Assembly (NCBI RefSeq): GCF_036365525.1
Contig: NC_090375.1
Span: 96,474,512 to 96,538,511, forward strand
DNA: 64,000 nt
Source of the DNA: Heterodontus francisci
Lineage: Eukaryota
Reading direction: 5' to 3'
The position numbers were made by a program, and so were the translations under genes. Within the stretch, counting starts at the first letter, position 1; each line of letters begins with the position of its first letter. A model generated the notes under the pieces. That model was not told the origin of the DNA and did no database searches. It was given only the letters and a program-made list of their open reading frames with translations. Shown one piece after another: positions 1-64,000 of the stretch.

Positions 1-1953
1 GCACTGTAAATGCGCAGCACTGTGGCATTGGGATGACATAGTTACACGGCCATTCAGCCATCTCAATGCAGCATTCACCCATCACAGAATATGGGGTTCG
101 GGTACATGCAAACTGTTCACTTCAATTTAGTCATTGTTGCTTGGTGTTGCCTCATGCATGGGTCTACAACCTGGACTCACATTTCATGGGTGCCTTTTAA
201 TTCTGAATCATGGAGTGACCCTTCCTTATTCATTCCTCTGCTGCCTTTGTTGCTGTAGAACCCCTCCTTTTTGCCTTTGTCTTCAACCTGCCTGATGCCT
301 GCACATGTGCGTTTAAAAATTGCAACTGTATGCACGATGCTGGCGCTAGGATCTGTCCGTTACTGTTAATTGGCCAGCTCCTTGCCTGCCTGCAGGCCTC
401 TAATTGGCTGTTTTTGATACAATGCCGTAGGAAGTCCCACCACCTGCCTGTGCGTGCCAATGACCCACATTTCCACCTGATGTTGAGCTGTCCGCCTGAT
501 CGGTAAAATTCAGATTTCAGTCTCATGCAGGAACGTGGCCACAGTGAAAGACTTTGTGGGTCCTTGATTGCTGGAAATGGACTGAAGATCTTCAGCAAGC
601 AATTAACATATTTGGAGGTGGGCAGGTGAGTGTGGTTACTGCTGCCATCTGTGTTCTGGATTCAGAAAAGATTTTGAAAGACCTTCTTGGTTTGCAAATC
701 CTGATGAGTGGGTACCTGCATTATAGGAAACAGATGTTTTCTGTAATGTCTCATTCTGAGACCCTCCAAATTAACATCTCTTCATTTTCTCCTCTTCATA
801 ACAAAGGAATAAATGATTTCCTTTGCAAACTCCATGCTGCCAGTCTACAGCTGTACTTTTTGCAGAGCTAACTAAAAGTAATAGGAAAAGTTCTGATAGA
901 ACATCCAAAGTAACAAATAGACCAACATACAGGCACAGTAGTTACAGCAAACAAAATAGCCTCCTCCAAGCAGTATCTACTTCAAGAACACCTTGCTGGT
1001 GCCCTTACTTTCATTAATATAGTAATTATTTGAGGTAGATTTGGGCAGAAGTTGGGGAAACGGGTTGGAGAGGTTTGCCACACCTACTTGACACCATTTA
1101 AATATGGCAGGCTGGATATCTGATGGGTCTTAAAGGGGACTATCAGCACCTCCCTCTGCAACAGGTCTTCCCAGTATTTCTTGTTGATTCCTCCTCATGG
1201 GAAGAGACAGCAAGAGCCTAATGAACAAGAGAAACCCTCCATCCTCCACATTCCCAGCCCCAGTAGACATTTTTTCTCTATTATTTTCCTAAGTGGAGTA
1301 GATGGGGTAGAGGTATCACCAGCATTCTTTTGGCACTTAGAGCTTGTAGACATTCCACTGAGACTAAGAACACACATGTCCCCATATGGAAGGCAGGTGT
1401 CAAAGTATGTGTGGGAACAGTGCTATCTCTCTTACAGATTTATATCGTTCTGCACAAATATGCCAGTGATAAGGAATACAGCAAAGGCAGGAGCAGCTTT
1501 TGATACTTACCTTGCCACTCTTTGTCAAGTCACTCAATTTCTTACAGGATTGAAGTGACATAGAGGCGGTTGAAAAAGGTGACACTGTTACCGTTGTGAT
1601 AATTGCCCTCTCTTCCTTCCTCCAAATATGCTCTCCTTTCTGCTCCTGACTTCTGGCAATGGCACTTCCAGCTTGCTCTCAGAGAAACTGGCAGACCATC
1701 TTTCTCTTTTTCTCGCTGGCTGGCAATTTTCAGGTTCCAACACTGTATTATCTCCTTGCACGCATGCAAATTTTCACTTGGAGTTGTGAATAATTATGAT
1801 AGTGAGCTAACCCTGGAAATGTGCATGTTGGTAGCATGCTACCAATCCGCCAAGAGTTGCACACCTTTTAAAACACTCTGAACTGAAAATCACCTATTTA
1901 ATTAAATTATAAATAAATCAAATAAAATAATTGCTTTTCAAAAATATGATTAC

Positions 1954-2119
1954 CTTCTTTCAGCATTTTAATAGCAACAGGTACATTGTCATTCCAGATG
2001 CCTTGCCACACTTCTCCATAATTACCAGATCCTATGCACTTTACTAAAGTGAATTCTTCTTTTGGTCTTTCCCATTTGTCCACAGTGTTATATGATAAGT
2101 GACGAAGAGATGGCTTTTT
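1954..2119 (-). CDS. PTK6: PTK6-family kinase exon 4 (linker and kinase subdomains I-II), 166 bp; not in the ORF track
   Basis: tttatcaacag| acceptor. Reads KKPSLRHLSYNTVDKWERPKEEFTLVKCIGSGNYGEVWQGIWNDNVPVAIKMLKE, then G|gtaatc donor. WERPKEEFTL resembles PTK6 WERPREEFTL. GxGxxG and VAIK are intact. No exon 5 found in 1-1953. Confidence 0.94.
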
Positions 2120-2410
2120 CTGTTGATAAATAATTACTGATTTAGGAAGAACATGTCAATTTAGATAAATACCGGTCAGAATGGGATATACAAACATATG
2201 AGCAATAACGGACCGGTAAAGACCCTCTGGTCCATCCACCTTGTAGCTCACAATTGTGATGCTTTGTGTATCATAATATATACTCTGAACCCACCCGAAT
2301 CCATTTGATTTCCTGAGAAGGGCAAAGAAATAGATAAAAATGCAGGCTAATTTGGGGAAAATGTCTGGGAAATTCCTCTCCTATCCATTTCGGTGATCAA
2401 AACTACATTG

Positions 2411-3437
2411 GAACATAAGAACAAGAGTAGGCCTTTTAATCCTTTGAGCCTATTACGTCATTCAGTGAGATCGTGGCTGATCTACGACCTAACTCCAAAA
2501 ACCTGCCTTTGCCCCATATTACTCAACACCTTTGGCTGATGAAAAGTTTTTAATGTCAGTTTTATAATTAGCAGTTGATCTACATCAATTGCCATTTGCT
2601 GAAGAGATTTCCAAACTTCTACTACCCGTTGTGTGAAGAAGTGTTTCCTAATTCCACTCCAGTAAGGTCTGGTACGAATGTTTAGGTTATGTCCCCTAAT
2701 GCTAGACTCCCCAACTAGCGGAAATAGTTTTTCCCAATCTACTTATATGTTCCACTTAATATCTTGAAAACTTCAGTCAACTCACCCCTTGATCTTCTAA
2801 ATTTCAGGAAATACAACACTAGTTTGTTTAATCTCTCCTTGTAGCTTGACCCTTAGACATCAGGGTATCATCTTCGTAAAACTACATTGCACTCCCTCCA
2901 AGGCCAATATATTCTTCCTGAGGTACGGAGCCCAGAACTGCTCGCAGTGCTCCAGGTGTGATCTAACCAGCATGTTGTATAGCTGAAGCATGACTACTAC
3001 CCCCTTGCATTCTATTCCTCCAGATAAAAATACCAGTATTCCATTAGCCTTTTTGATTATTTTCTGTACCTGTTCATGACATTTTAATGATCTGTGTACC
3101 TGGACTCCCATGTCTTTTTGGACGTTCACAGTTTATAGTATTTTACCATTTAGCAAGTACACGGTTCTATCCATTTTAGGTCCAATGTGGATGACTTCAC
3201 ATTTGCCTACATTTAAATCCATTTGCCACAGTTTTTCCCATTCACTTAATCTATCCATTTTGCTTCCATTATTACTGCTTACTATACCACCTATCTTTGT
3301 GTCAGCAGCAAATTTGGATATGTGACTTTCTATCTCAGCATCTAAGTCATTAATGAATAGTGAATAGTTGAGGCCCCAAAACAGATCCTTGCGGGATACT
3401 ACTAGACACATCCTGCCAATTAGAGTACCTGCCTATG
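2411..3437 (-). mobile_element. CR1 LINE, 5'-truncated and degraded
   Basis: RT fragments FINDLD...SKFAADTK and LVRSHLEHCEQFWAPY in broken frames; CR1-type 3' stem and tail near 2411-2445. Confidence 0.88.
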
Positions 3438-8425: not shown

Positions 8426-9840
8426 TTTTTTTATTCGTTCATGAGATGTGGGCATCGCTAGCTAGGCCAGCATTTAGTGCCCATTCCTAATTGCCCTTGA
8501 GAAGGTGGTGGTGAGTGGCCTTCTTGAACCGCTGCAGTCCATGTGGGGTAGGTACACCCACAGTGCTGTTACGAAGGGAGTTCCAGGATTTTGACCCAGC
8601 AACAGTGAAGGAATGGACATATCATTCCAAGCCAGGATGGTGTATGGCTTGGAGGGGAACTTGCAGGTGGTGATGTTCCCATGCATTTTCTGCCCTTGTC
8701 CTGCTAGGTGGTAGAGGTCACGGGTTTGGAAGATGCTGTCTAAGGAGCCTAGGTGCATTGCTGCACTGCATCCTGTAGATGTTACACACTGCTGCCACTG
8801 TGCGTCGGTGGTGGAAGGAGTGAATGTTTGTGGATGGGGTGCCAATCAAGTGAGTTGCTTTGTCTTGGATGGTGTCGAGCTTCTTGAGTGTTGTTGGAGC
8901 TGCACCCATCCAGGCAAGTGGAGAGCAATCCATCACACTCATGACTTGTGCCTTGTAGATGGTGGACAGGCTTTGGAAGTCAGGAGGTGAATTACTCGCC
9001 ACAGGATTCCTAGCCTCTGACCCGCTCTTGTAGCCATGGTATTTATATGACTACTCCAGTTCCTGGTCAATGGTAACCCCGAGGATGTTGATAGCGAAGA
9101 ATTCAGCGATCGTAATGCCATTGAATGTTAAGGGGAGATGAGCAGATTCTCTCTTGTTGGAGATGGTCATTGCCTGGCACTTGTGTGGCATGAATGTTAC
9201 TTGTCACTTACCAGTCCAAGCCAGGATATTATGCAGGTCTTACTGCATTTCTACCTGGACTGCTTCAGTATCTGAGCAGTTGCGAATGGTGCTGAACATT
9301 GTGCAATCAGTGAACGTCCCCACTTCTGACCTTATGATTGAAGGAAGGTGATTGATGAAGCAGCTGAAGATGGTTGGGCCTAGGACACTGCCCTGAGGAA
9401 CTCCTGCAGTGATGTCCTGGAGCTGAGATGATTGACCTCCAACAACCACAACCATCTTCCTTTGTGCTAGGTATGACTCCAACCAGTGGAGAGTTTTCTC
9501 CCTGATTCCCATTGACTCCAGTTTTGCTAGGGCTCCTTGATGCCATACTTGGTCAAATGCTGCTTTAACGTCAAAGGCAGTCATCTCACCTCTGTCCACC
9601 ATTTACAAGGCACAAGGCAGTCATCTCACCTCACTTCTTGAGTTCAGCTCTTTTTTCCATTTCTGAACCAAGGCTGTAATGAGGTCAGGGGCTGAGTGGC
9701 CCTGACAGAACCCAAACTGAGCTTCACTGAGCAGGTTATTGCTGAGTAAGTGCCGCTTGATAGCACTGTTGACAACTCCTTCCATCACTTTACTGATGAT
9801 TGAGAGTAGACTGATGGGGCGGTAATTGGCCGGGTTGGAC

Positions 9841-10167
9841 TTTATTTTATTTTTTATTTAGAGATACAGCACTGAAACAGGCCCTTCGACCCACCGAGTC
9901 TGTGCCGACCAACAACCACCCATTTATACTAACCCTATAGTAATCCCATATTCACTACCACCTACCTACACTAGGGGCAATTTACAATGGCCAATTTACC
10001 TATCACCTGCAAGTCTTTTGGCTGTGGGAGGAAACCGGAGCACCCGGCGAAAACCCACGCGGTCACAGGGAGAACTTGCAAACTCCGCACAGGCAGTATC
10101 CAGAATCGAACCCTGGTCCCTGGAGCTGTGAGGCTGTGGTGCTAACCACTGCGCCACTGTGCCGCCC
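9841..10167 (-). mobile_element. HE1-like tRNA-derived V-SINE, full length
   Basis: Reverse complement starts GGGCGGCACAGTGGCGCAGTGG (A box), then GGTTCGATTC (B box), central domain, CR1-like tail gaagggcctgtttcagtgctgtatctct and (TAAA)n. Confidence 0.9.
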
Positions 10168-10213
10168 GCTCTTTTTGTACCTGGGCAGTTTTCCACATTG
10201 CCAGGTAGATACC

Positions 10214-10371
10214 TGGTATGGGTGGGTGGGGGGGAAATGTAGGGACGGGTGGGGATGTGGTAGGAATATGGGTTTAATGTAGGATTGGTGTAGATGGGTG
10301 GTTGATGGTCAGTGCGGACTCGGTGGGCCGAAGGGCCTGTTTCAGTGCTGTATCTCTAAACTAAAACTAAA
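10214..10371 (+). mobile_element. HE1-like SINE 3' fragment
   Basis: gggccgaagggcctgtttcagtgctgtatctctaaactaaaac tail; flanked by an atacc direct repeat. Confidence 0.8.
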
Positions 10372-10697
10372 CATACCAATGTTGTAGCTGTACTGGAACA
10401 GCTTGGCTAGGGACGCGGCAAGTTCTGTAGCACAGGTCTTCAGTATTATTCCCTGAATGTTGTCAGGGCCCATAGCCTTTTCAGTTTCCAGTGCCTTCAG
10501 TCATTTCTTGATATCATGTGGAGTGAATCGAGTTGGCTGAAGACTGGCATCAGTGATGCTGGGGACCTCGGGAGGAGGCTGAGACGGATCAACCACGCAG
10601 CACTTCTGGCTGTAGCTTGTTGCAAATGCTTCAGCCTTATCTTTTGAGGATGGGGATTTTTGTGTTGTTAGTTGTTTAATTGTCCACCACAATTCAT

Positions 10698-15700: not shown

Positions 15701-16165
15701 ACAATATATATTAATGATTTAGATGAGGGAACTAAATGTAATATCTCCAAATTTGCAGCTGACACAAAATTGGGTGGCAGGGTGAGTTGTGAAGAGGATG
15801 CAGAGAGGCTTCAGGCTGATTTGGACAAGTGGAGTGTGTGGGCTAATGCATGGAAGATGCAGTATAATGTGGATAAATGTGAGGTTATCCACTTTGGTAT
15901 TAAAAACAGGAAGGCAGATTATTATCTGAACGGCTATAAACTGAGAGAGGGGAATATGCAACGAGACCTGGGTGTTCTCGTAGAACAGTCACTGGAAGGT
16001 AAGCATGCAGGTGCAACAGGCAGTAAAAAGGGCAAATGGCATGTTGGCCTTCATAGCGAGAGGATTCGAGTACAGAAGCAGGGATGTCTTGCTGCAATTA
16101 TACAGGGCCTTGGTGAGGCCACACCTGGAATATTGTGTGCAGTTTTGGTCTCCTTATCTGAGGAA

Positions 16166-16991
16166 CCGCATGACGGCTCTCGAGCTGCGGATGGACTCAC
16201 TTTGGAGCATGCGCGATGCTGAGGAGGTCGTGGATAGCACGTTTAGTGAATTGGCCACACCGCAGATTAGGATTTCTGAGGGAGAAAGGGAATGGGTGAC
16301 CAAAAGGCAGAGAAAGAGCAGGAAGGCAGCGCAGGAGTCCCCTGCGGTCATCTCCCTCCAAAACAAGTATACCGTTTTGGATACCGTTGAGGGAGATGGC
16401 TCACCAGGGGAAGGCAGCAGTAGCCAGGTCCATGGCACCGTGGCTGGCTCTGCTGTTCAGAAGGGCGGGAAAAAGAGTGGAAGGGCTATAGTCGTAGGGG
16501 ATTCGATTGTAAGGGGAGTAGATAGGCGGTTCTGTGGTCGAAAACGAGGCTCCCGAATGGTATGTTGCCTCCCAGGTGCACGGGTCAGGGATGTCTCAGA
16601 TCGGCTGCAGAACATTCTAAAGGGGGAGGGTGAACAGCCAGTTGTCATTGTGCACATAGGCACTAATGATATAGGTAAAAAACGGGATGAGGTCCTACAA
16701 GCAGAGTTTAGGGAGTTAGGAGCCAAGTTAAAAAGTAGGACCTCAGAGGTAGTAATCTCAGGATTACTACCAGTGCCACGTGATAGTCAGAGTAAAAATG
16801 AAAGAATAGTCAGGATGAATGCGTGGCTTGAGAGATGGTGCAGGAAGGAGGGGTTCAGATTTTTGGGACATTGGGACCGGTTCTGGGGGAGGTGGGACTA
16901 TTACAAATTGGACGGTCTACACCTGGGCCGGACTGGAACCAATGTCCTTGGAGGTGCTTTTGCTAACGCTGTTGGGGAGGGTTTAAACTAA
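16166..16991 (+). CDS. CR1 ORF1p, SGNH/GDSL esterase domain (partial)
   Basis: Blocks VVGDSIV, CLPGA, HIGTND and DGLHL are all present; a coiled-coil-like segment precedes them. Confidence 0.9.
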
Positions 16992-19945
16992 TGTGGCAGG
17001 GGGATGGGAACCAATTGAGGTCAGTTGACAGTAAGGAGGTAGTAACAAAAGCCTGTAAGGAACTAGATAATGAAGTCAGTGCGACTAAGGGGAAGAGCAG
17101 GCAGGGAGCAGATGATGAATATAAAGGGACTGGTGGTCTGAGGTGCATTTGTTTTAATGCAAGAAGTGTAGTAGGTAAGGCAGATGAACTTAGGGCTTGG
17201 ATTAATACCTGGGAGTATGATGTTATTGCTATTACTGAGACTTGGTTGAGGGAAGGGCATGATTGGCAACTAAATATCCCAGGATATCGATGCTTCAGGC
17301 GGGATAGAGAGGGAGGTAAAAGGGGTGGAGGAGTTGCATTACTGGTCAAAGAGGATATCACAGCTGTGCTGAAGGAGGGCACTATGGAGGACTCGAGCAG
17401 TGAGGCAATATGGACAGAACTCAGAAATAGGAAGGGTGCGGTAACAATGTTGGGGCTGTACTACAGGCCTCCCAACAGCGAGCGTGAGATGGAGGTACAA
17501 ATATGTAAACAGATTATGGAAAGATGTAGGAGCAACAGGGTGGTGGTGATAGGAGATTTTAATTTTCCCAACATTGACTGGGATTCGCTTAGTGTTAGAG
17601 GTCCAGATGGAGCAGAATTTGTAAGGAGCATCCAGGAGGGTTTTCTAGAGCAGTATGTAAATAGTCCAACTCGGGAAGGGGCCATACTGGACCTGGTGTT
17701 GGGGAATGAGCCCGGCCAGGTTGTTGAAGTTTCAGTAGGGGACTACTTTGGGAATAGTGATCACAATTCCGTAAGCTTTAAAATACTCATGGACAAAGAC
17801 GAGAGTGGTCCTAAAGGAAGAGTGCTAAATTGGGGGAAGGCCAACTATACCAAAATTCGGCAGGAGCTGGGAAATGCAGATTGGGAGCAGCTGTTTGAAG
17901 GTAAATCCACATGTGATATGTGGGAGGCTTTTAAAGAGAGGTTGATTAGCGTGCAGGAGAGACATGTTCCTGTGAAAATGAGGGATAGAAATGGCAAGAT
18001 TAGGGAACCATGGATGACAGGTGAAATTGTGAGACTAGCTAAGAGGAAAAAGGAAGCATACATAAGGTCTAGGCGGCTGATGAAAGACGAAGCTTTGAAA
18101 GAATATCGGGAATGTAGGACCAATCTGAAACGAGGAATTAAGAGGGCTAAAAGGGGTCATGAAATATCTTTAGCAAACAGGGTTAAGTAAAATCCCAAAG
18201 CCTTTTATTCATATATAAGGAGAAAGAGGGTAACTCGAGAAAGGATTGGCCCACTAAAGGACAAAGGAGGAATGTTATGCTTGGACTCAGAGAAAATGGG
18301 TGAGATTCTAAACGAGTACTTTGCATCGGTATTCACCGAGGAGAGGGACATGACGGATGTTGAGGTTAGGAACAGATGTTTGATTACTCTAGGTCAAGTC
18401 GGCATAAGGAGGGAGGAAGTGTTGGGTATTCTAAAGGGCATTAAGGTGGACAAGTCCCCAGGTCCGGATGGGATCTATCCCAGGTTACTGAGGGAAGCGA
18501 GAGAGGAAATAGCTGGGGCCTTAACAGATATCTTTGCAGCATCCTTAAACACGGGTGAGGTCCCGGAGGACTGGAGAATTGCTAATGTTGTCCCCTTGTT
18601 TAAGAAGGGTAGCAGGGATAATCCAGGTAATTATAGACCGGTGAGCCTGACGTCAGTGGTAGGGAAGCTGCTGGAGAAGATACTGAGGGATAGGATCTAT
18701 TCCCATTTGGAAGAAAATGGGCTCATCAGTGATAGGCAACATGGTTTTGTGCAGGGAAGGTCATGTCTTACCAACTTAATAGAATTCTTTGAGGAAGTGA
18801 CAAAGTTGATTGATGAGGGAAGGGCTGTCGATGTCATATACATGGACTTCAGTAAGGCGTTTGATAAGGTTCCCCATGGCAGGCTGATGGAGAAAGTGAA
18901 GGCGCTTGGGGTCCAAGGTGTACTAGCTAGATGGATAAAGAACTGGCTGGGCAACAGGAGACAGAGAGTAGCAGTAGAAGGGAGTTTCTCAAAATGGAGA
19001 CGTGTGACCAGTGGTGTTCCACAGGGATCCGTGCTGGGACCACTGTTGTTTGTGATATACATTAATGATTTGGAGGAAAGTATAGGTGGACTGATTAGCA
19101 AGTTTGCAGACGACACTAAGATTGGTGGAGTAGCAGATAGTGAAGGGGACTGTCAGAGAATACAGCAGAATATAAATAGATTGGAGAGTTGGGCAGAGAA
19201 ATGGCAGATGGAGTTCAATCAGGGCAAATGCGAGGTGATGCATTTTGGAAGATCCAATTCAAGAGTGAACTATACAGTAAATGGAAAAGTCCTGGGGAAA
19301 ATTGATGTCCAGAGAGATTTGGGTGTTCAGGTCCACTGTTCCCTGAAGGTGGCAACGCAGGTAAATAGAGTGGTCAAGAAGGCATACGGCATGCTTTCCT
19401 TCATCGGACGGGGCATTGAGTACAAGAGTTGGCAGGTCATGTTACAGTTGTATAGGACTTTGGTTCGGCCACATTTGGAATACTGCGTGCAGTTCTGGTC
19501 GCCACATTATCAAAAGGATGTGGATGCTTTGGAGAGGGTGCAGAGGAGGTTCACCAGGATGTTGCCTGGTATGGAGGGCGCTAGCTATGAAGAGAGGTTG
19601 AGTAGATTAGGATTATTTTCATTAGAAAGACGGAGGTTGAGGGGGGACCTGATTGAGGTGTACAAAATCATGAGAGGTATAGACAGGGTGGACAGCAAGA
19701 GGCTTTTTCCCAGAGTGGGGGTTTCAATTACTAGAGGACACGAGTTCAAAGTGAAAGGGGAAAAGTTTAGGGGGGATATGCGTGGAAAGTTCTTTACGCA
19801 GAGGGTGGTGGGCACCTGGAACGCATTGCCAGCGGAGGTGGTAGATGCGGGCACGATGGAGTCTTTTAAGATGTATCTAGACAGATACATGAATGGGCAG
19901 GAAGAAAAGAGATACAGAACCTTAGAAAATAGGCGACATGTTTAG
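16991..19945 (+). pseudogene. CR1 ORF2p (APE endonuclease and RT), 984 codons with a single nonsense codon at 18188-18190
   Basis: ORFs 16991-18190 and 18272-19945 are in the same frame with no other stop between them. Motifs ITETW, GDFN, SDH, GVPQGSVLGP, KFADD. Confidence 0.93.
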
Positions 19946-26760: not shown

Positions 26761-26899
26761 TGAGTTAGCTGATTTCAGCTGGTTTCAGCTGGTTGTATGA
26801 TATGAGTCTATATTTGGCCTTAACCTTCCTGGATTGCTACCAATTTCATGGTTCAAATGCAGCAGGTGAGATATTGTTTTACATGGGGTTAATACTCAC

Positions 26900-27372
26900 G
26901 ATTCTTCCTCCAAGCTCTTCTCTTTTGCAAGTATTTCGACAGGTACAAACCCAGAGCAGCAATTTTTGTGCTTGCATGATTCTCTAGAACCTTTCCAAAA
27001 TTTCTGAGTAAACCACCAATCCCCTTCTTTGCTGAGGATCTCCAGGCGCTCTCCTTTTCTCACGCTCAGCTCATCATGGGTCCTTGCCATATAATCAAAC
27101 TGTACTATATAAATCTCTGAGAAATGTGGAACTTCACTTCTGTCTTCCCTATTAATATCTGCATTTTCAGTACAACATGAGTTTTGTGCAGTCTGCTGAA
27201 CGGTGTTTGTTGCTGGGATGTGCAGTGGTCTAGCTTCGTGAGTACACTCTGCAGCTCCAGACCATTCATTTGTGGTCTGGCTTGTCAATCCTTGTGGCCT
27301 AACACTCTTCTCATCCTCCAAGGTGGAAAGATTTGCAGGATAGCTGAAACAACAACAGCATAGGACGGCCAT
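26900..27372 (-). CDS. PTK6: PTK6/BRK-family tyrosine kinase, coding exon 1 (unique N-terminus and SH3)
   Basis: ATG at 27372 in strong Kozak context (actATGg) with an upstream in-frame TAA. Encodes MAVLCCCCF...YIVQFDYMARTHDELSVRKGERLEILSKEGDWW...GFVP (SH3). Ends at TC|gtgagtat donor, phase 2. The symbol is a family-level call; it may be a divergent paralog. Confidence 0.88.
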
Positions 27373-27427
27373 AGTGCTGATGTGAATGAGTCTTTACAGC
27401 TCTTTGCCTTTGCAGAACTGCTTGTAC

Positions 27428-50161: not shown

Positions 50162-53100
50162 GGGGAGGCAGTGGTGTAGTGGTATTGTCACTGGAATAGT
50201 AGCCCAGAGACCCAGGGTATTTCTCTGGGGACATAGGTTCGAATCTCACCACAGCACAGGATGGAATTTGAATTCAATTAATAAATCTGGAATTTAAAAA
50301 AAAGCTAGTCTAATGATGGCCCATCTGATTCACTAATGTCCTTTAGGGAAGGAAATCTGCTGTCCTTACCTGGTCTGGCCTACATGTGACTCCAAACTCA
50401 CAGCAATGTGGTTGACTCTGAAATGGTCTAGCAAGCTACTCAGTTGGATCTAACCGCTATGAAGTCAATAAAACAGAATGAAACCAGGTGGACCACCCGG
50501 CATCAACCTAGGCACCTGAAACAGCAATGGCAAATCTAGCCCTGTCGACCCTGACAAAGCCCTCCTTACTAACAACTGGGGGCTGGTGCCAAAGTTGGGA
50601 GAGCTGTCCCACAGACTAGTCAAGCAACAGCCTAACATAGTCATACTCACGGAATCATATCTTACAGACAATGTCCCAGACTCTGCCATCACTATCCCCG
50701 GGTATGTCCTGTCCCACCGGCAGGACAGACCCAGCAGAGGTGGTGGCACTGTGGTATACAGTCGGGACGGAGCTGCCCTGGGAGTCCTTAACATGACTCC
50801 AGACACCATGAAGTCTCTGGAAAGGAGAGCTTCTGCTGATTACCATCTACTGCCCTCCCTCAGCTGATAAATCAGTACTCCTCCATGTTGATCACCACTT
50901 GGAGGAAGCACTGAGGCTGGCAAGGGCACAGCATGTACTCTGGGTGGGGGACTTCAATGTCCATCACCAAGAGTGGCTCGGTAGCACCACTACTGACCGG
51001 GCTAGCCATGTCCTAAAGGACATAACTGCTAGACTGGGTCTGCAGCAGATGGTGAGGGAACCAACATGAGGGAAAAACATACTTGACCTCATCCTCACCA
51101 ATCTGCCTGCCACAGATGCATCTGTCCATGATAGTATTGGTAGGAGTGACCACCGCAGTCCTTGTAGAGAGGAAGTCTCACCTATACATTGAGGACATCC
51201 TCCATCGTGTTGTGTGGCACTACCACCATGCTAAATGGGATAGATTTTGAACAGATCTAGCAATGCAAAACTGGACATCCATGAGGACCACCAGCAGCAG
51301 TAGAATTGTACTCAACCACAATTTGTAACCTTATGACCCGGCATATTCCCCACTCTACCATTACCATCAAGCCAGGAGACCAACCCTGGTTCAATGAAGA
51401 GAGCAGGAGGGCATGCCAGGAGCAGCACCAAGCATACCTCAAAATGAGGTGTCAACCTGGTGAAGCGACAGCACAGGACTATCTGCATGCCAAACTGCAT
51501 AAGCAACATGTGATGGACAGAGCTAAGCGATCCCATAACCAACAGATCAGATCTAAGCTCTGCAGTCTTGCTGCATCCAGCCATAACTGGTGGTGGATAA
51601 TTAAACAACTAACCGGACAATTATCCCCATTCTCAATGATGGGGGAGCCCAGCACATCAGTGCGAAAGATAAACCTGATAAGTCATTTGCAACAATCTTC
51701 AGCCAGAAATGCTGAGTTGATGATCCATCTTGGCCTCCTCCTGAAGTCCCCAGCACCACGGATGCCAGACTTCAGCCAATTTGATTCAATCCGCGTGATC
51801 TCAAGAAATGACTGAAGGCACTGGATACTGCAAAGGCTATGGACCCCGACAATATTCCGGCAAAAGAACTGAAGATCTGTGCTCCAGAACTTGCCATGCT
51901 CCTAGCCAAGCTGTTCCAGTACAGCTACAACACTGGCATCTACCCGGCAATGTGAAAAATTGCCCTGGTATGTCCTGTACACAAAAAGCAGGACAAATCC
52001 AACCCGGCCAATTACCACCCCATCAGTCTACTCTTAATCATGAGTAAAATGATGGAAGGTGTCATCGACAGTGATATCAAGCAGCACTTGCTTAGAAATG
52101 ATCAGTGAAGCTCAGTTTGGGTTCCGCCAGGGCCACTCAGCTCCTGACCTCATTACAGCCTTGGTTCAAACATGGACAAAAGAGGTGAGGTGAGTGTGAC
52201 TGCCCTTGACATCAAGGCAGCATTTGACTGAATATGGCATCAAGGAGCCCTAGCAAAACTGGAGTCAATGGGAATCAGGGGGAAAACTCTGCCCTGGTTG
52301 GAGTTATACCTAGTGCAAAGGAAGATGGTTGTAGCTGTTGGAGGTCAATCATCTGAGCTCCAGGACATCACTGCAGGAGTTCCTCAGAGTAGTGTCCTTG
52401 GCCCAACCATCTTCAGCTGCTTCATCAATGACCTTCCTTCAATCATAAGGTCAGAAGTGGGGATGTTTGCTGATGATTGCACAATGTTCAGCACCATTCA
52501 TGACTCCTCAGATACTGAAGCAGTCTGTGTAGAAATGCAGCAAGACCTGAAAAATACCCAGGCTTAGGCTGATAAGTGGCAAGTAACACTCACGCCACAC
52601 AAGTGCCAGGCAATGACCATCTCCAACAAGAAAGAATCTAACCATCTCCCCTTGACATTCAACAGCATTACCATCGCTGAATCCCCCACTATCAACATCC
52701 TGGGGGTTACCATTGACCAGAAATTGAACTGGAGTAGTCATATAAATACTGTGGCTACAAGAGCGGTGCAGAGGCTCGGAACCCTGTGGTGAGTAATTCA
52801 CCTCCTGACTCCCCAAAGCCTGTCCACCATCTACAAGGCACAAGTCAGGAGTGTGATGGAATACTCTCCACTTGCCTGGATGGGTGCAGCTCCGACAACA
52901 CTCAAGAAGCTCGACACCATCCAGGACAAAGCAGTCCACTTGATTGGCACCTCATCTACAAACATTCTCTCCCTCCAACGCCAACGCACAGTGGCAGCAG
53001 TGTGTACTGTCTACAAGGTGCACTGCAGCAACGCAGCAAGGCTCCTTAGACAGCACCTTCCAAACCCGTGACCTCTACCAACTAGAAGGACAAGGGCAGC

Positions 53101-53349
53101 AAATGTATGGGAATGCCACCACCTCCAAGTCACTCACCATCCTGACTTGGAAGTATATTGCCGTTCCTTCACTGTTGCTGAGTCAAAATCCTGGAACTCC
53201 CTTCCTAACAGCACTGTGGGTGTACCTCACATGGAGAGCAGCGGTTCAGGTAGGCAGCTCACCACCACCTTCTCAAGGGCAATTAGGGATGGGCAATAAA
53301 TGCTAGCCTAGCCAGCAATGCCCACATCCCATGAAAGAATTTAAAAAAA
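50162..53349 (+). mobile_element. Full-length single-ORF LINE (CR1/L2 group) with a tRNA-derived 5' head; ORF decayed
   Basis: A box TGGTGTAGTGG (50172-50182); B box GGTTCGAATCT (50236-50246). ATG at 50478 is in frame with APE LLTNNWGL..VILTESYL (TGA at 50517). GDFN, SDH, GVPQSSVLGP and MFADD follow. 3' end gggcaattagggatgggcaataaatgct with A-tail. Confidence 0.88.
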
Positions 53350-62090: not shown

Positions 62091-63237
62091 CTACCTTCTG
62101 GATTGCTGCTGTAAACTGAACCTTTATTATCGATTCCCTCTAGTGGCACACCGTGCATGCTACACAAAGCATGTATGGTGGCTTCAAATGAACAATACAC
62201 CACATTTCAAATGAACAATAAATGAAAAATACACTACATCCCTCCCCTTCTTGGTAAATGAGAGTTTCAATAGTTTCCTTACATTGTTCTCTTTGGACAT
62301 TACTTCAGTTTGTAACATAATCACCTAAGTATGGTTGACGTTTCCGCTCATGAGTAGGATATCGATGTATGACATCAAGTGTTGTCTCTTGCTTCATCTG
62401 AAATGTCAATGTCTGGATTGGACACAACGCTGGTGGATGGTGTTTGCAACATTTTGAAGAATGACTCGTTTTGTGTGATGATTTGTGAACCACACTTAGC
62501 AGTGATCAGTAAACCTTTCTTGTTGGTCACAACATATGGCTGGATGTCATGGGGGTTGTTTGCTTTCCAACATAACCATCACAATTTACAAGCATTTTGT
62601 CTCCTGTCTTTAGCGGTGTAGTTCTGAATTTCAGTTTTACTCTGCGTTTGCTTTCATGCAATCTTTCTGTTCTTGATCACGCTCATGTGCGTGTTGATCA
62701 TTCGCTTTGCAGGGTAGATCGGGAAGACATGTGTGCATTGGATGTGTGAAGATGAGTATAGCTGGAGGCTTTCCAGTGGTCGAGTGAGGAGCCGCTCTGC
62801 AATTGAGAAGAAAACGAAACAACTCCTGCTTCCACAACTTGCTCTCAGCAGTTGCTGTACAGATCACAGTTTCAAGTTACGCGTGAATCTCTCAACTCCT
62901 CCATTAGCTCTTAGCCAACAGGATGTGATATTTCGCTGAGTGAAACCCAGGTAATTTGCAAATTTACTGAACTCATTGTTGTTGAATGGGGTCCATTGTT
63001 GCTTCTCACTGTTTGAGGGACTCCAAACCAAGCAAAAATCTTGTCAAACTTTGAGGTGACTGCTTTTGCTGAGGTAGACGTAACTGTTTCTGTGACTGGG
63101 AATCTGCTGTAATTGTCAGTGACAAGAGAAAAGTGCTCATCAGTGGGCAAGTCTGCAAAGTCTACACTAGCTTCAGTCCAGGGGCCTTCAGGCAGCTCAG
63201 GCATGTTGAGTGGCTCACAAAGATTTGATGTTGTGGT
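62091..63237 (-). mobile_element. Gypsy family C integrase remnant, PPT and partial 3' LTR
   Basis: PEGPWTEASVDF..DNYSRFP..FGVPQTVRSNNGP; PPT aagaaggggaggga (62252-62239) abuts TGTAG at 62238. Confidence 0.8.
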
Positions 63238-64000
63238 TTTTTTATTCTTTCATGGGATTTGGGCTTGGCCAGCATTTATTGCCCATCCCTAATTGCCCTT
63301 GAGAAGATGATGAACTACCTTTTTGAATAGCTGCAGTCATGTGGTGTAGGTACACCCACAGTGCTGTTAGGAAGGGAGTTCCAGGATTTTGACCCAATGA
63401 TGATGAAGAAACAATGATATAGTTCCAAGTCAGGATGGTGTGTGACTTGGAGGGGAACTTGCAGGTGGTGGTGTTTCCATGCATTTGCTGCCCTTGTCCT
63501 TCTAGTTGGCAGAGGTCGGGGGTTTGGAAGGTGCTGTCTAAGGAGCCTTGGTGCATTGCTGCAATGCATCTTGTAGATGGTACACACTGCTGCCACTGTG
63601 CGTCGGTGGTGGAGGGAGTGAATGTTTGTAGATGGGGTGCCAATCAAGCGGGCTGCTTTGTCCTGGATGGTGTCGAGCTTCTTGAGAGTTGTTGGAGCTG
63701 CACCCATCCAGGCAAGTGGAAAGTATTCCATCACACTCCTGACTTGTGCCTTGTAGATGGTGGACAGGCTTTGGGAAGTCAGGAGGTGAGTTACTCGCCT
63801 CAGGATTCCTAGCCTCTGACCTGCTCTTATTGCCACGGTATTTATATGGCTAGTCCAGTTCAATTTCTGGTCCACAGTAATCCCTAGGATGTTGATAGTG
63901 GGGGATTCAGCGATGGTAATGCTGTTGAATGTCAAGGGGAGATGGTTAGATTCTCTCTTGTTGGAGATGGTCATTGCCTGGCACTTGTGTGGCGCGAATT
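63237..64000 (-). mobile_element. 3' part of a third copy of the tRNA-headed LINE family (runs off the window)
   Basis: ORF 63315-63974 YKAQVRSVMEYFPLAWMGAAPTTLKKLDTIQDKAARLI; same 3' tail as 53275-53349. Confidence 0.9.

Follow-up and report, generated by a model that had tools for sequence, protein, structure and literature searches.

Is there a protein-coding retrotransposon that uses RNA polymerase III (Pol III) for its transcription? The field works with a split in which long interspersed elements (LINEs) code for proteins and use RNA polymerase II (Pol II), while short interspersed elements (SINEs) are non-coding and use Pol III. The question is raised by a LINE copy that begins with a tRNA-like head, found in a 64,000-nucleotide stretch of Heterodontus francisci DNA (NC_090375.1, positions 96,474,512 to 96,538,511 of the forward strand; hereafter the window). 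We identified it as a degenerate copy of Zenon from elasmobranchs, an A-tailed LINE of the CR1 group that lacks open reading frame (ORF) 1 and has been described in sharks and rays (Stuart et al. 2026, PMC13343379; papers are cited here for the parts of them available to us). Based on the sequence comparisons below, we propose, with a probability of roughly 0.6, that active ancestors of this copy were transcribed end to end by Pol III and translated without a cap or an AUG codon.

Identity of the element and distribution of its head

We built a consensus from 26 young copies, after dropping 10 others for insertions, rearrangements or a lost 5' end. It is 3,298 nt long, with a mean divergence of 4.4%, and holds one open frame of 975 codons (nt 308-3232) with apurinic/apyrimidinic endonuclease (APE) and reverse transcriptase (RT) domains in Pfam and no ORF1. 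This frame and its domains bear out the initial annotation of the window, which had proposed a single APE and RT frame without ORF1. Most copies end in short A tails, typically of 7-10. The closest proteins belong to single-ORF elements on 3-4.7-kb contigs (40-47% identity), and viral contigs gave one weak match only. A quick RT tree, whose rows include no labelled Zenon protein, placed the element in a 22-row clade (SH-aLRT 98), apart from the CR1 of the same genome and bird CR1. It further departs from canonical CR1 in having no ORF1 and in its 26% identity to ORF2 of the genome's CR1.

In five species of sharks and rays, seven consensuses already published (CarCar_Zenon-1, RhiTyp_Zenon-1, ScyCan_Zenon-1, SquAca_Zenon-1/2/3 and HypSab_Zenon-1) begin with the same head and leader, being nearly identical to our element by eye over the first 400 nt, the part in which sequence was compared (PMC13343379). 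They resemble it as well in their length of about 3.3 kb (3244-3314 for the five main ones), absence of ORF1, APE and RT domains and A tail. Two hagfish and one coelacanth Zenon have no head and carry T4+ runs within their first 400 nt, again by eye (PMC13343379). Since the elasmobranch consensuses match, the family is already known and its lack of ORF1 is ordinary for that clade. The head seems to have gone unremarked: the available text of Stuart et al. makes no mention of a tRNA head, Pol III boxes, T-run avoidance, a missing AUG or derived SINEs. Neither "tRNA" nor "polymerase III" appears in that text, and "tRNA" is absent from its supplement as well (PMC13343379).

The head, its boxes A and B and the hairpin arm between them are all present where the initial annotation had placed them. 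We compared the consensus head with one tRNA isotype, the tRNA-Thr(AGT) gene of the same genome, and found that the anticodon loop and T arm are identical, with a 20-nt insertion in the head. The alignment score of the consensus was 56.7 (best of 1000 shuffles, 34.8), and that of the decayed window copy was 40.8 (best shuffle 42.1, shuffle mean 16.7). ARAGORN did not call the head as a tRNA, and Rfam likewise gave no call for it. Both boxes are intact in the young and in an older subfamily. The 5' end is sharp and lies 10 nt ahead of box A in most of 55 copies, with G at positions 1-3 in 40, 46 and 50 of them and no majority base at position -1. The element thus has two features of a type-2 Pol III unit, namely a 5' end at a short fixed distance before box A and a body without internal terminators (no TTTT in either subfamily consensus, no TVTTT in the ORF). 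The tRNA-derived head with its two boxes is also a feature of SINE2 elements; the LINE itself, at 3.3 kb with a 975-codon frame, is not short and non-coding, as two deletion families derived from it are.

The genome also contains SINEs that carry this head, and at one locus (L309) a whole SINE stands before a truncated LINE, so that in the window, too, a SINE might have come to lie beside a truncated LINE by chance. A search of the 6-Gb genome with the head and ORF start, in which the best 40 of 10,774 candidates were scored and which is therefore biased to the query, returned 39 other matches, 35 of which start within the first 18 nt and continue into the ORF. The head is shared across the family, as the initial annotation had supposed, and not confined to the window copy: of 43 loci retrieved, 36 are complete from head to tail. 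The same junction recurs in these 36 loci and in five other species, and no tail or duplication separates head from ORF. This family-wide junction refutes a chance juxtaposition, to which we assign a negligible chance.

Free of head bias, 30 copies were picked by an internal ORF motif and their alignments judged by eye. Twelve reach back to nt 81 or earlier, five more retain pieces of the leader and 13 are truncated within the ORF; no alternative shared 5' end was seen among the 30. The older subfamily, found by diagnostic motifs (a genome search seeded with an old copy brought up mostly young copies), has a consensus 4.4% from the young one that is headed too and contains no TTTT or TVTTT.

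Avoidance of T-runs on the sense strand

The initial annotation had counted a single TTTT among many A-runs on the sense strand of the window copy. This count is correct, and compares with 15 A4+, 9 C4+ and 8 G4+ runs. At this site the 26 aligned copies read GATTTCGA in 11 cases, GATTTTGA in nine, GATTTCAA in five and GATTTAGA in one, in line with the suggested origin of the run by CpG decay. The two other Zenon copies of the window have no sense TTTT outside an inserted SINE, as had been claimed, and the second of them carries one TVTTT; the T-runs reported for the neighbouring CR1 are also there. Mutation easily creates T4+ runs, since decaying Zenon copies carry on average 0.92 internal ones. 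The young consensus has no TTTT and seven TTT, next to 14, 13 and 7 runs of four or more A, C and G. An expectation of 6-9 TTTT per 3.2 kb, given earlier, proved too high: base shuffling yields 5.8 for the window copy (1 observed, P=0.022) and 4.5 for the consensus (0 observed, P=0.01). The consensus would hold 5.2 under uniform synonymous choice (P=0.005) and 6.3 under the codon usage of the genome's CR1 (P=0.0005).

With protein and codon usage fixed in synonymous shuffles, the ORF contains 4 TTT versus 12.8 expected and 76 TT versus 96.9 expected (0/5000 shuffles each). Minimal terminators, defined as TTTT or TVTTT (PMC8466645), are absent from the ORF, compared with 4.0 in synonymous shuffles (P=0.007). 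Where a synonymous T could be chosen, it was taken at 157 of 333 isolated sites and at 45 of 145 sites that give TT, but at 4 of 39 that give T3+ (isolated versus T3+-making, Fisher P=4e-6). Runs of A, C and G, pyrimidine tracts, splice-like signals and poly(A) signals all occur at expectation, so we do not attribute the depletion to an avoidance of splice acceptors or poly(A) signals. The strong signal clearly lies in TT, TTT and TVTTT rather than in TTTT alone, and the depletion is T-specific. Thus the proposed deficit relative to codon-shuffled controls stood for TTT and for TTTT/TVTTT, which are depleted beyond codon usage, while for TTTT by itself it was weak.

Control elements behaved differently from the shark element. 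The young CR1 of the same genome has 19 terminators versus 19.4 expected, and uses T at 20 of 29 TTTT-making sites. A long ORF containing the RT motif was present at 48 of 80 metagenome loci; their observed/expected ratio for TTT was 0.54-1.22, versus 0.31 in the shark element, and 47 of them carry 8-63 terminators. L101, the sole metagenome locus inside the clade of the Zenon element, has 20 TTTT and no box A/B match. Furthermore, phenylalanine (Phe) makes up 1.85% of the Zenon protein, a lower share than in any of the 90 homologues that measure 900-1100 aa among 120 listed (median 4.4%). Proteins P0103, P0079 and P0112 (also P0076 and P0102) have Phe near 2%, and the first three fall in the subclade of the shark element; these low-Phe relatives may represent a second lineage that avoids T-runs.

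These patterns could also belong to an ordinary Zenon transcribed by Pol II (or by host read-through), whose tRNA-like 5' piece is an RNA structure or a relic and whose T-runs are held down by another pressure against U-rich RNA. LINEs normally use Pol II, the absence of TTTT taken alone is not significant, and the pairing of the inserted hairpin is maintained across subfamilies, pointing to a function at the RNA level. The lepidopteran Zenon, in addition, is described without a Pol III promoter (PMC6740152). However, the depletion is specific to T and to one strand and is absent from the CR1 of the same genome and from the Zenon-like L101, and the boxes have stayed intact in both subfamilies behind a 5' end set 10 nt before box A. 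We consider a Pol II origin of the transcript rather unlikely.

Translation, transposition and points for and against a Pol III transcript

Between the two subfamily consensuses we obtained a dS of 0.135 and a dN of 0.016 (dN/dS 0.12); therefore, the ORF was functional in headed lineages, where it evolved under purifying selection. In the young consensus no in-frame AUG occurs before codon 285, which lies beyond the endonuclease, and none of the ten AUGs upstream opens the ORF. Cap-dependent scanning is unlikely for this reason, which also speaks against a Pol II messenger. Two candidate start codons were rejected: an in-frame ATG at nt 344 of the older consensus is not constant among old copies, and most of the oldest copies lack the ATG at consensus nt 354, which is out of frame and opens 46 codons. 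In 37 of 40 pattern-matched copies the distance between nt 320 and the ORF preserves the frame, from which we infer that translation starts at a non-AUG codon near nt 320. In the leader (50320-50447) the subfamilies differ at only 4 of 144 sites. Rfam returned no ribozyme or internal ribosome entry site family in the head or leader, and a crude custom descriptor detected no ribozyme like that of hepatitis delta virus (HDV) in the leader. R2 and L1Tc are precedents for the translation of uncapped retrotransposon RNA (PMC6765202).

Uncapped translation would not be needed if each locus gave two RNAs, with Pol III supplying the template for reverse transcription and the protein coming from capped Pol II or read-through RNA of the same or other copies. 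Such an arrangement would still explain the boxes and the avoidance of T-runs, and assemblies presumed to be of RNA contain many pieces of the element, which may derive from DNA or host read-through. A capped RNA, though, would meet the same upstream AUGs and missing start codon, and the purifying selection seen on the ORF would be maintained more readily if one and the same RNA were copied and translated. We regard the two-RNA arrangement as improbable.

At the 3' end, the LINEs carry AATAAA 40 nt ahead of the short A tail, and the old SINE carries AACAAA at this place. Among pattern-matched copies, T-runs border the tail as T2+ in 29 of 69 and as T4+ in 6 of 69. In the 3' ends of about 150 copies the T-run and A-run together make about 10 letters (T1A9 to T5A5), and long tails are absent. 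We set aside the idea that these T-runs are remnants of a terminator: because T plus A stays near 10 and LINE copies show no clear trend with age, it is simpler to assume that the runs grew after insertion, a process described in PMC8466645. Judging from these ends, the tail T-runs could give some copies terminators, without discriminating between the polymerases. A shared flank word of at least 7 nt was found in 2 of 36 copies versus 6 of 200 mismatched pairs, and so there is no regular target-site duplication.

Taken together, these data suggest the following cycle. TFIIIC would bind boxes A and B, and Pol III would begin at nt 1 and could run through 3.3 kb of a body free of T-runs, stopping at a T-run in the flank or, in some copies, in the tail. 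The leader would bring ribosomes to the non-AUG start, and the Zenon protein would insert its own RNA by target-primed reverse transcription, a mechanism established for elements without long terminal repeats. The head was probably acquired by an ORF1-less Zenon in the ancestor of sharks and rays. The full account, in which a protein-coding retrotransposon makes a 3.3-kb Pol III transcript from a captured tRNA promoter, is translated from uncapped RNA at a non-AUG codon, has been kept across sharks and rays, has lost Phe through terminator avoidance and has given rise to SINEs by single deletions, is held tentatively, at slightly short of an even chance.

Several observations weigh against a Pol III transcript. 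TTTT is not significantly depleted relative to synonymous shuffles with the element's own codon usage (0 vs 2.1, P=0.09) or dinucleotide shuffles (1.6 expected, P=0.18), and in dinucleotide shuffles the terminators gave P=0.11 for the young and 0.01 for the old consensus. TA is depleted too (P=0.003). Most controls are richer in T (about 0.3) than the shark element (0.20), and one distant GC-rich (63%) LINE ORF, L158:1310-4685, has zero TTTT/TVTTT with no box A/B match upstream. As the two subfamily consensuses are only 4.4% apart, they are not independent tests of T avoidance. The terminator-free body has an exception in one TATTT in the young head, present in the loop in 13 of 26 young copies, a motif that stopped 42-50% of transcripts in mammalian assays (PMC8466645). 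The leader does not fold beyond chance (z -1.42 and -1.75), and the inconstant ATG at nt 344 of the older consensus is in frame. Finally, the consensus has no 3' terminator, and its AATAAA and A tail are compatible with Pol II too.

If the Pol III reading is true, a coding LINE run by Pol III would break the split between LINEs and SINEs, and the element would be a natural 3.3-kb Pol III messenger. Uncapped, non-AUG translation would become testable on a defined vertebrate leader. The family also shows a direct way in which SINEs are born, by a single deletion in a headed LINE, observed two times.

Derived SINEs, other features of the window and known systems

The initial annotation had suggested that the element could be the parent of a SINE by internal deletion. 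In the young SINE family, nt 1-322 are joined to nt 3202-3298, and the junction is spanned by 40 of 40 matches listed; 16 copies were retrieved, which differ from the young LINE by 4% and agree with it at 16 of 21 head sites and 4 of 4 tail sites. In the old family, nt 1-323 are joined to 3222-3298; 28 aligned copies are 14% from their consensus, and of 21 diagnostic head sites 17 match the old LINE and 2 the young. Both junctions were also seen among contig joints from other sequencing runs. On these sequence matches, the young family demonstrably descends from the LINE, and the old one likely does. A third junction, from nt 321/322 to 3219, occurs in one young copy (minus strand of L297, in its last 128 bases). 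The breakpoints of all three deletions thus fall at consensus nt 321-323, where the ORF is inferred to start.

Table 1. Coordinates of the Zenon copies in the window and of the parts of the full-length copy.
Feature	Positions	Strand	Remark
Full-length decayed elasmobranch Zenon LINE copy	50162-53349	+	6.8% from family consensus, 15 indels, many stops
tRNA-derived head	50162-50257	+	Aligns to genomic tRNA-Thr(AGT) gene, with 20-nt insertion
Pol III box A	50172-50182	+	TGGTGTAGTGG; begins 10 nt behind the 5' end
Anticodon-like stem-loop	50191-50207	+	Consensus loop equals tRNA-Thr(AGT) loop; two changes in window copy
Inserted hairpin between boxes	50211-50229	+	Loop with TATTT in 13/26 young copies
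Pol III box B	50236-50246	+	GGTTCGAATCT
Leader body	50261-50447	+	Whole in both derived SINEs; candidate cap-independent entry site
Single ORF (broken in window copy)	50444-53286	+	Basic N-terminus, AP endonuclease, reverse transcriptase
Putative ORF start	near 50444		From frame conservation; no conserved in-frame AUG before endonuclease
AP-endonuclease region	50571-51160 (approximate limits)	+	Pfam PF14529/PF03372 on sister copy L090, mapped over
Only internal TTTT	51245-51248	+	CpG decay after insertion
Reverse-transcriptase region	51950-52720 (approximate limits)	+	Pfam PF00078 on sister copies L082 and L086
3' end common to derived SINEs	53253-53349	+	Young SINE from 53253, old SINE from 53273
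AATAAA, then T3A7 tail	AATAAA at 53296-53301	+	3' end of window copy
5'-truncated Zenon copy	8426-10697	-	Broken up by SINE insertions
3' part of further Zenon copy	63237-64000	-	Rest cut off by window edge

The insertion at 9844-10372 (-) within the truncated Zenon copy holds a different tRNA-headed SINE, which resembles the shark V-SINE type. Young Zenon copies or SINEs were also found within or directly beside older Zenon (L298:688-3035, L306:1024-3033, L271, L300 and L325); a preference for insertion into their own kind may exist, this nesting being given as seen, with no comparison with chance. The CR1 at 15984-19945 (+) is very young, as 40 of 40 copies listed are 99-100% identical. ORF2, of 992 codons, is intact in its sister copies and has one stop in the window copy; it contains no ATTTA (5.2 expected, P=0.002). 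The ORF upstream in this CR1 is presumably an esterase-type ORF1. An open frame at 26896-27393 (-) seems to contain what we assume to be an SH3-domain exon of a host gene.

A literature search of titles and abstract openings, covering few subscription journals and neither Repbase nor Dfam, found no description of a Pol III-driven coding LINE. RTE-1_DAn and related elements, compared here through a one-sentence description, are LINEs of another clade and host that contain tRNA-like sequence, and may be a precedent (PMC5786205). R2, L1Tc and RTE elements with HDV-like ribozyme leaders also lack ORF1, and their uncapped RNA is thought to be translated through the structured leader; that RNA is cut from Pol I or Pol II transcripts (PMC6765202), whereas no ribozyme was found in Zenon. 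The T+ SINEs B2, Dip and Ves likewise have AATAAA close to the 3' end and short A tails, and their T-runs grow longer where the tail begins, but they are non-coding and their consensus has a terminator (PMC8466645), unlike that of Zenon. The leader and tail of Zenon may also resemble the amniote fossil SINE AmnSINE2.

With regard to the derived SINEs, the lepidopteran Zenon and its derivative Persaeus offer a parallel, since there too a Zenon LINE repeatedly yielded short deletion derivatives made of its 5' and 3' parts (PMC6740152). Persaeus is described as lacking both homology to tRNA and a Pol III promoter (PMC6740152), whereas the shark deletion products are tRNA-headed SINEs from birth. 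Bov-tA, CoeSINE4 and SINE2-1_ACar share the layout of a tRNA head, a LINE 5' part and a LINE 3' end; in these the head was joined to an RTE or Vingi element that had undergone deletion before and was non-coding (PMC5786205, PMC4494074). In the shark element, by contrast, the head sits on an intact coding LINE, and the clade is CR1-Zenon.

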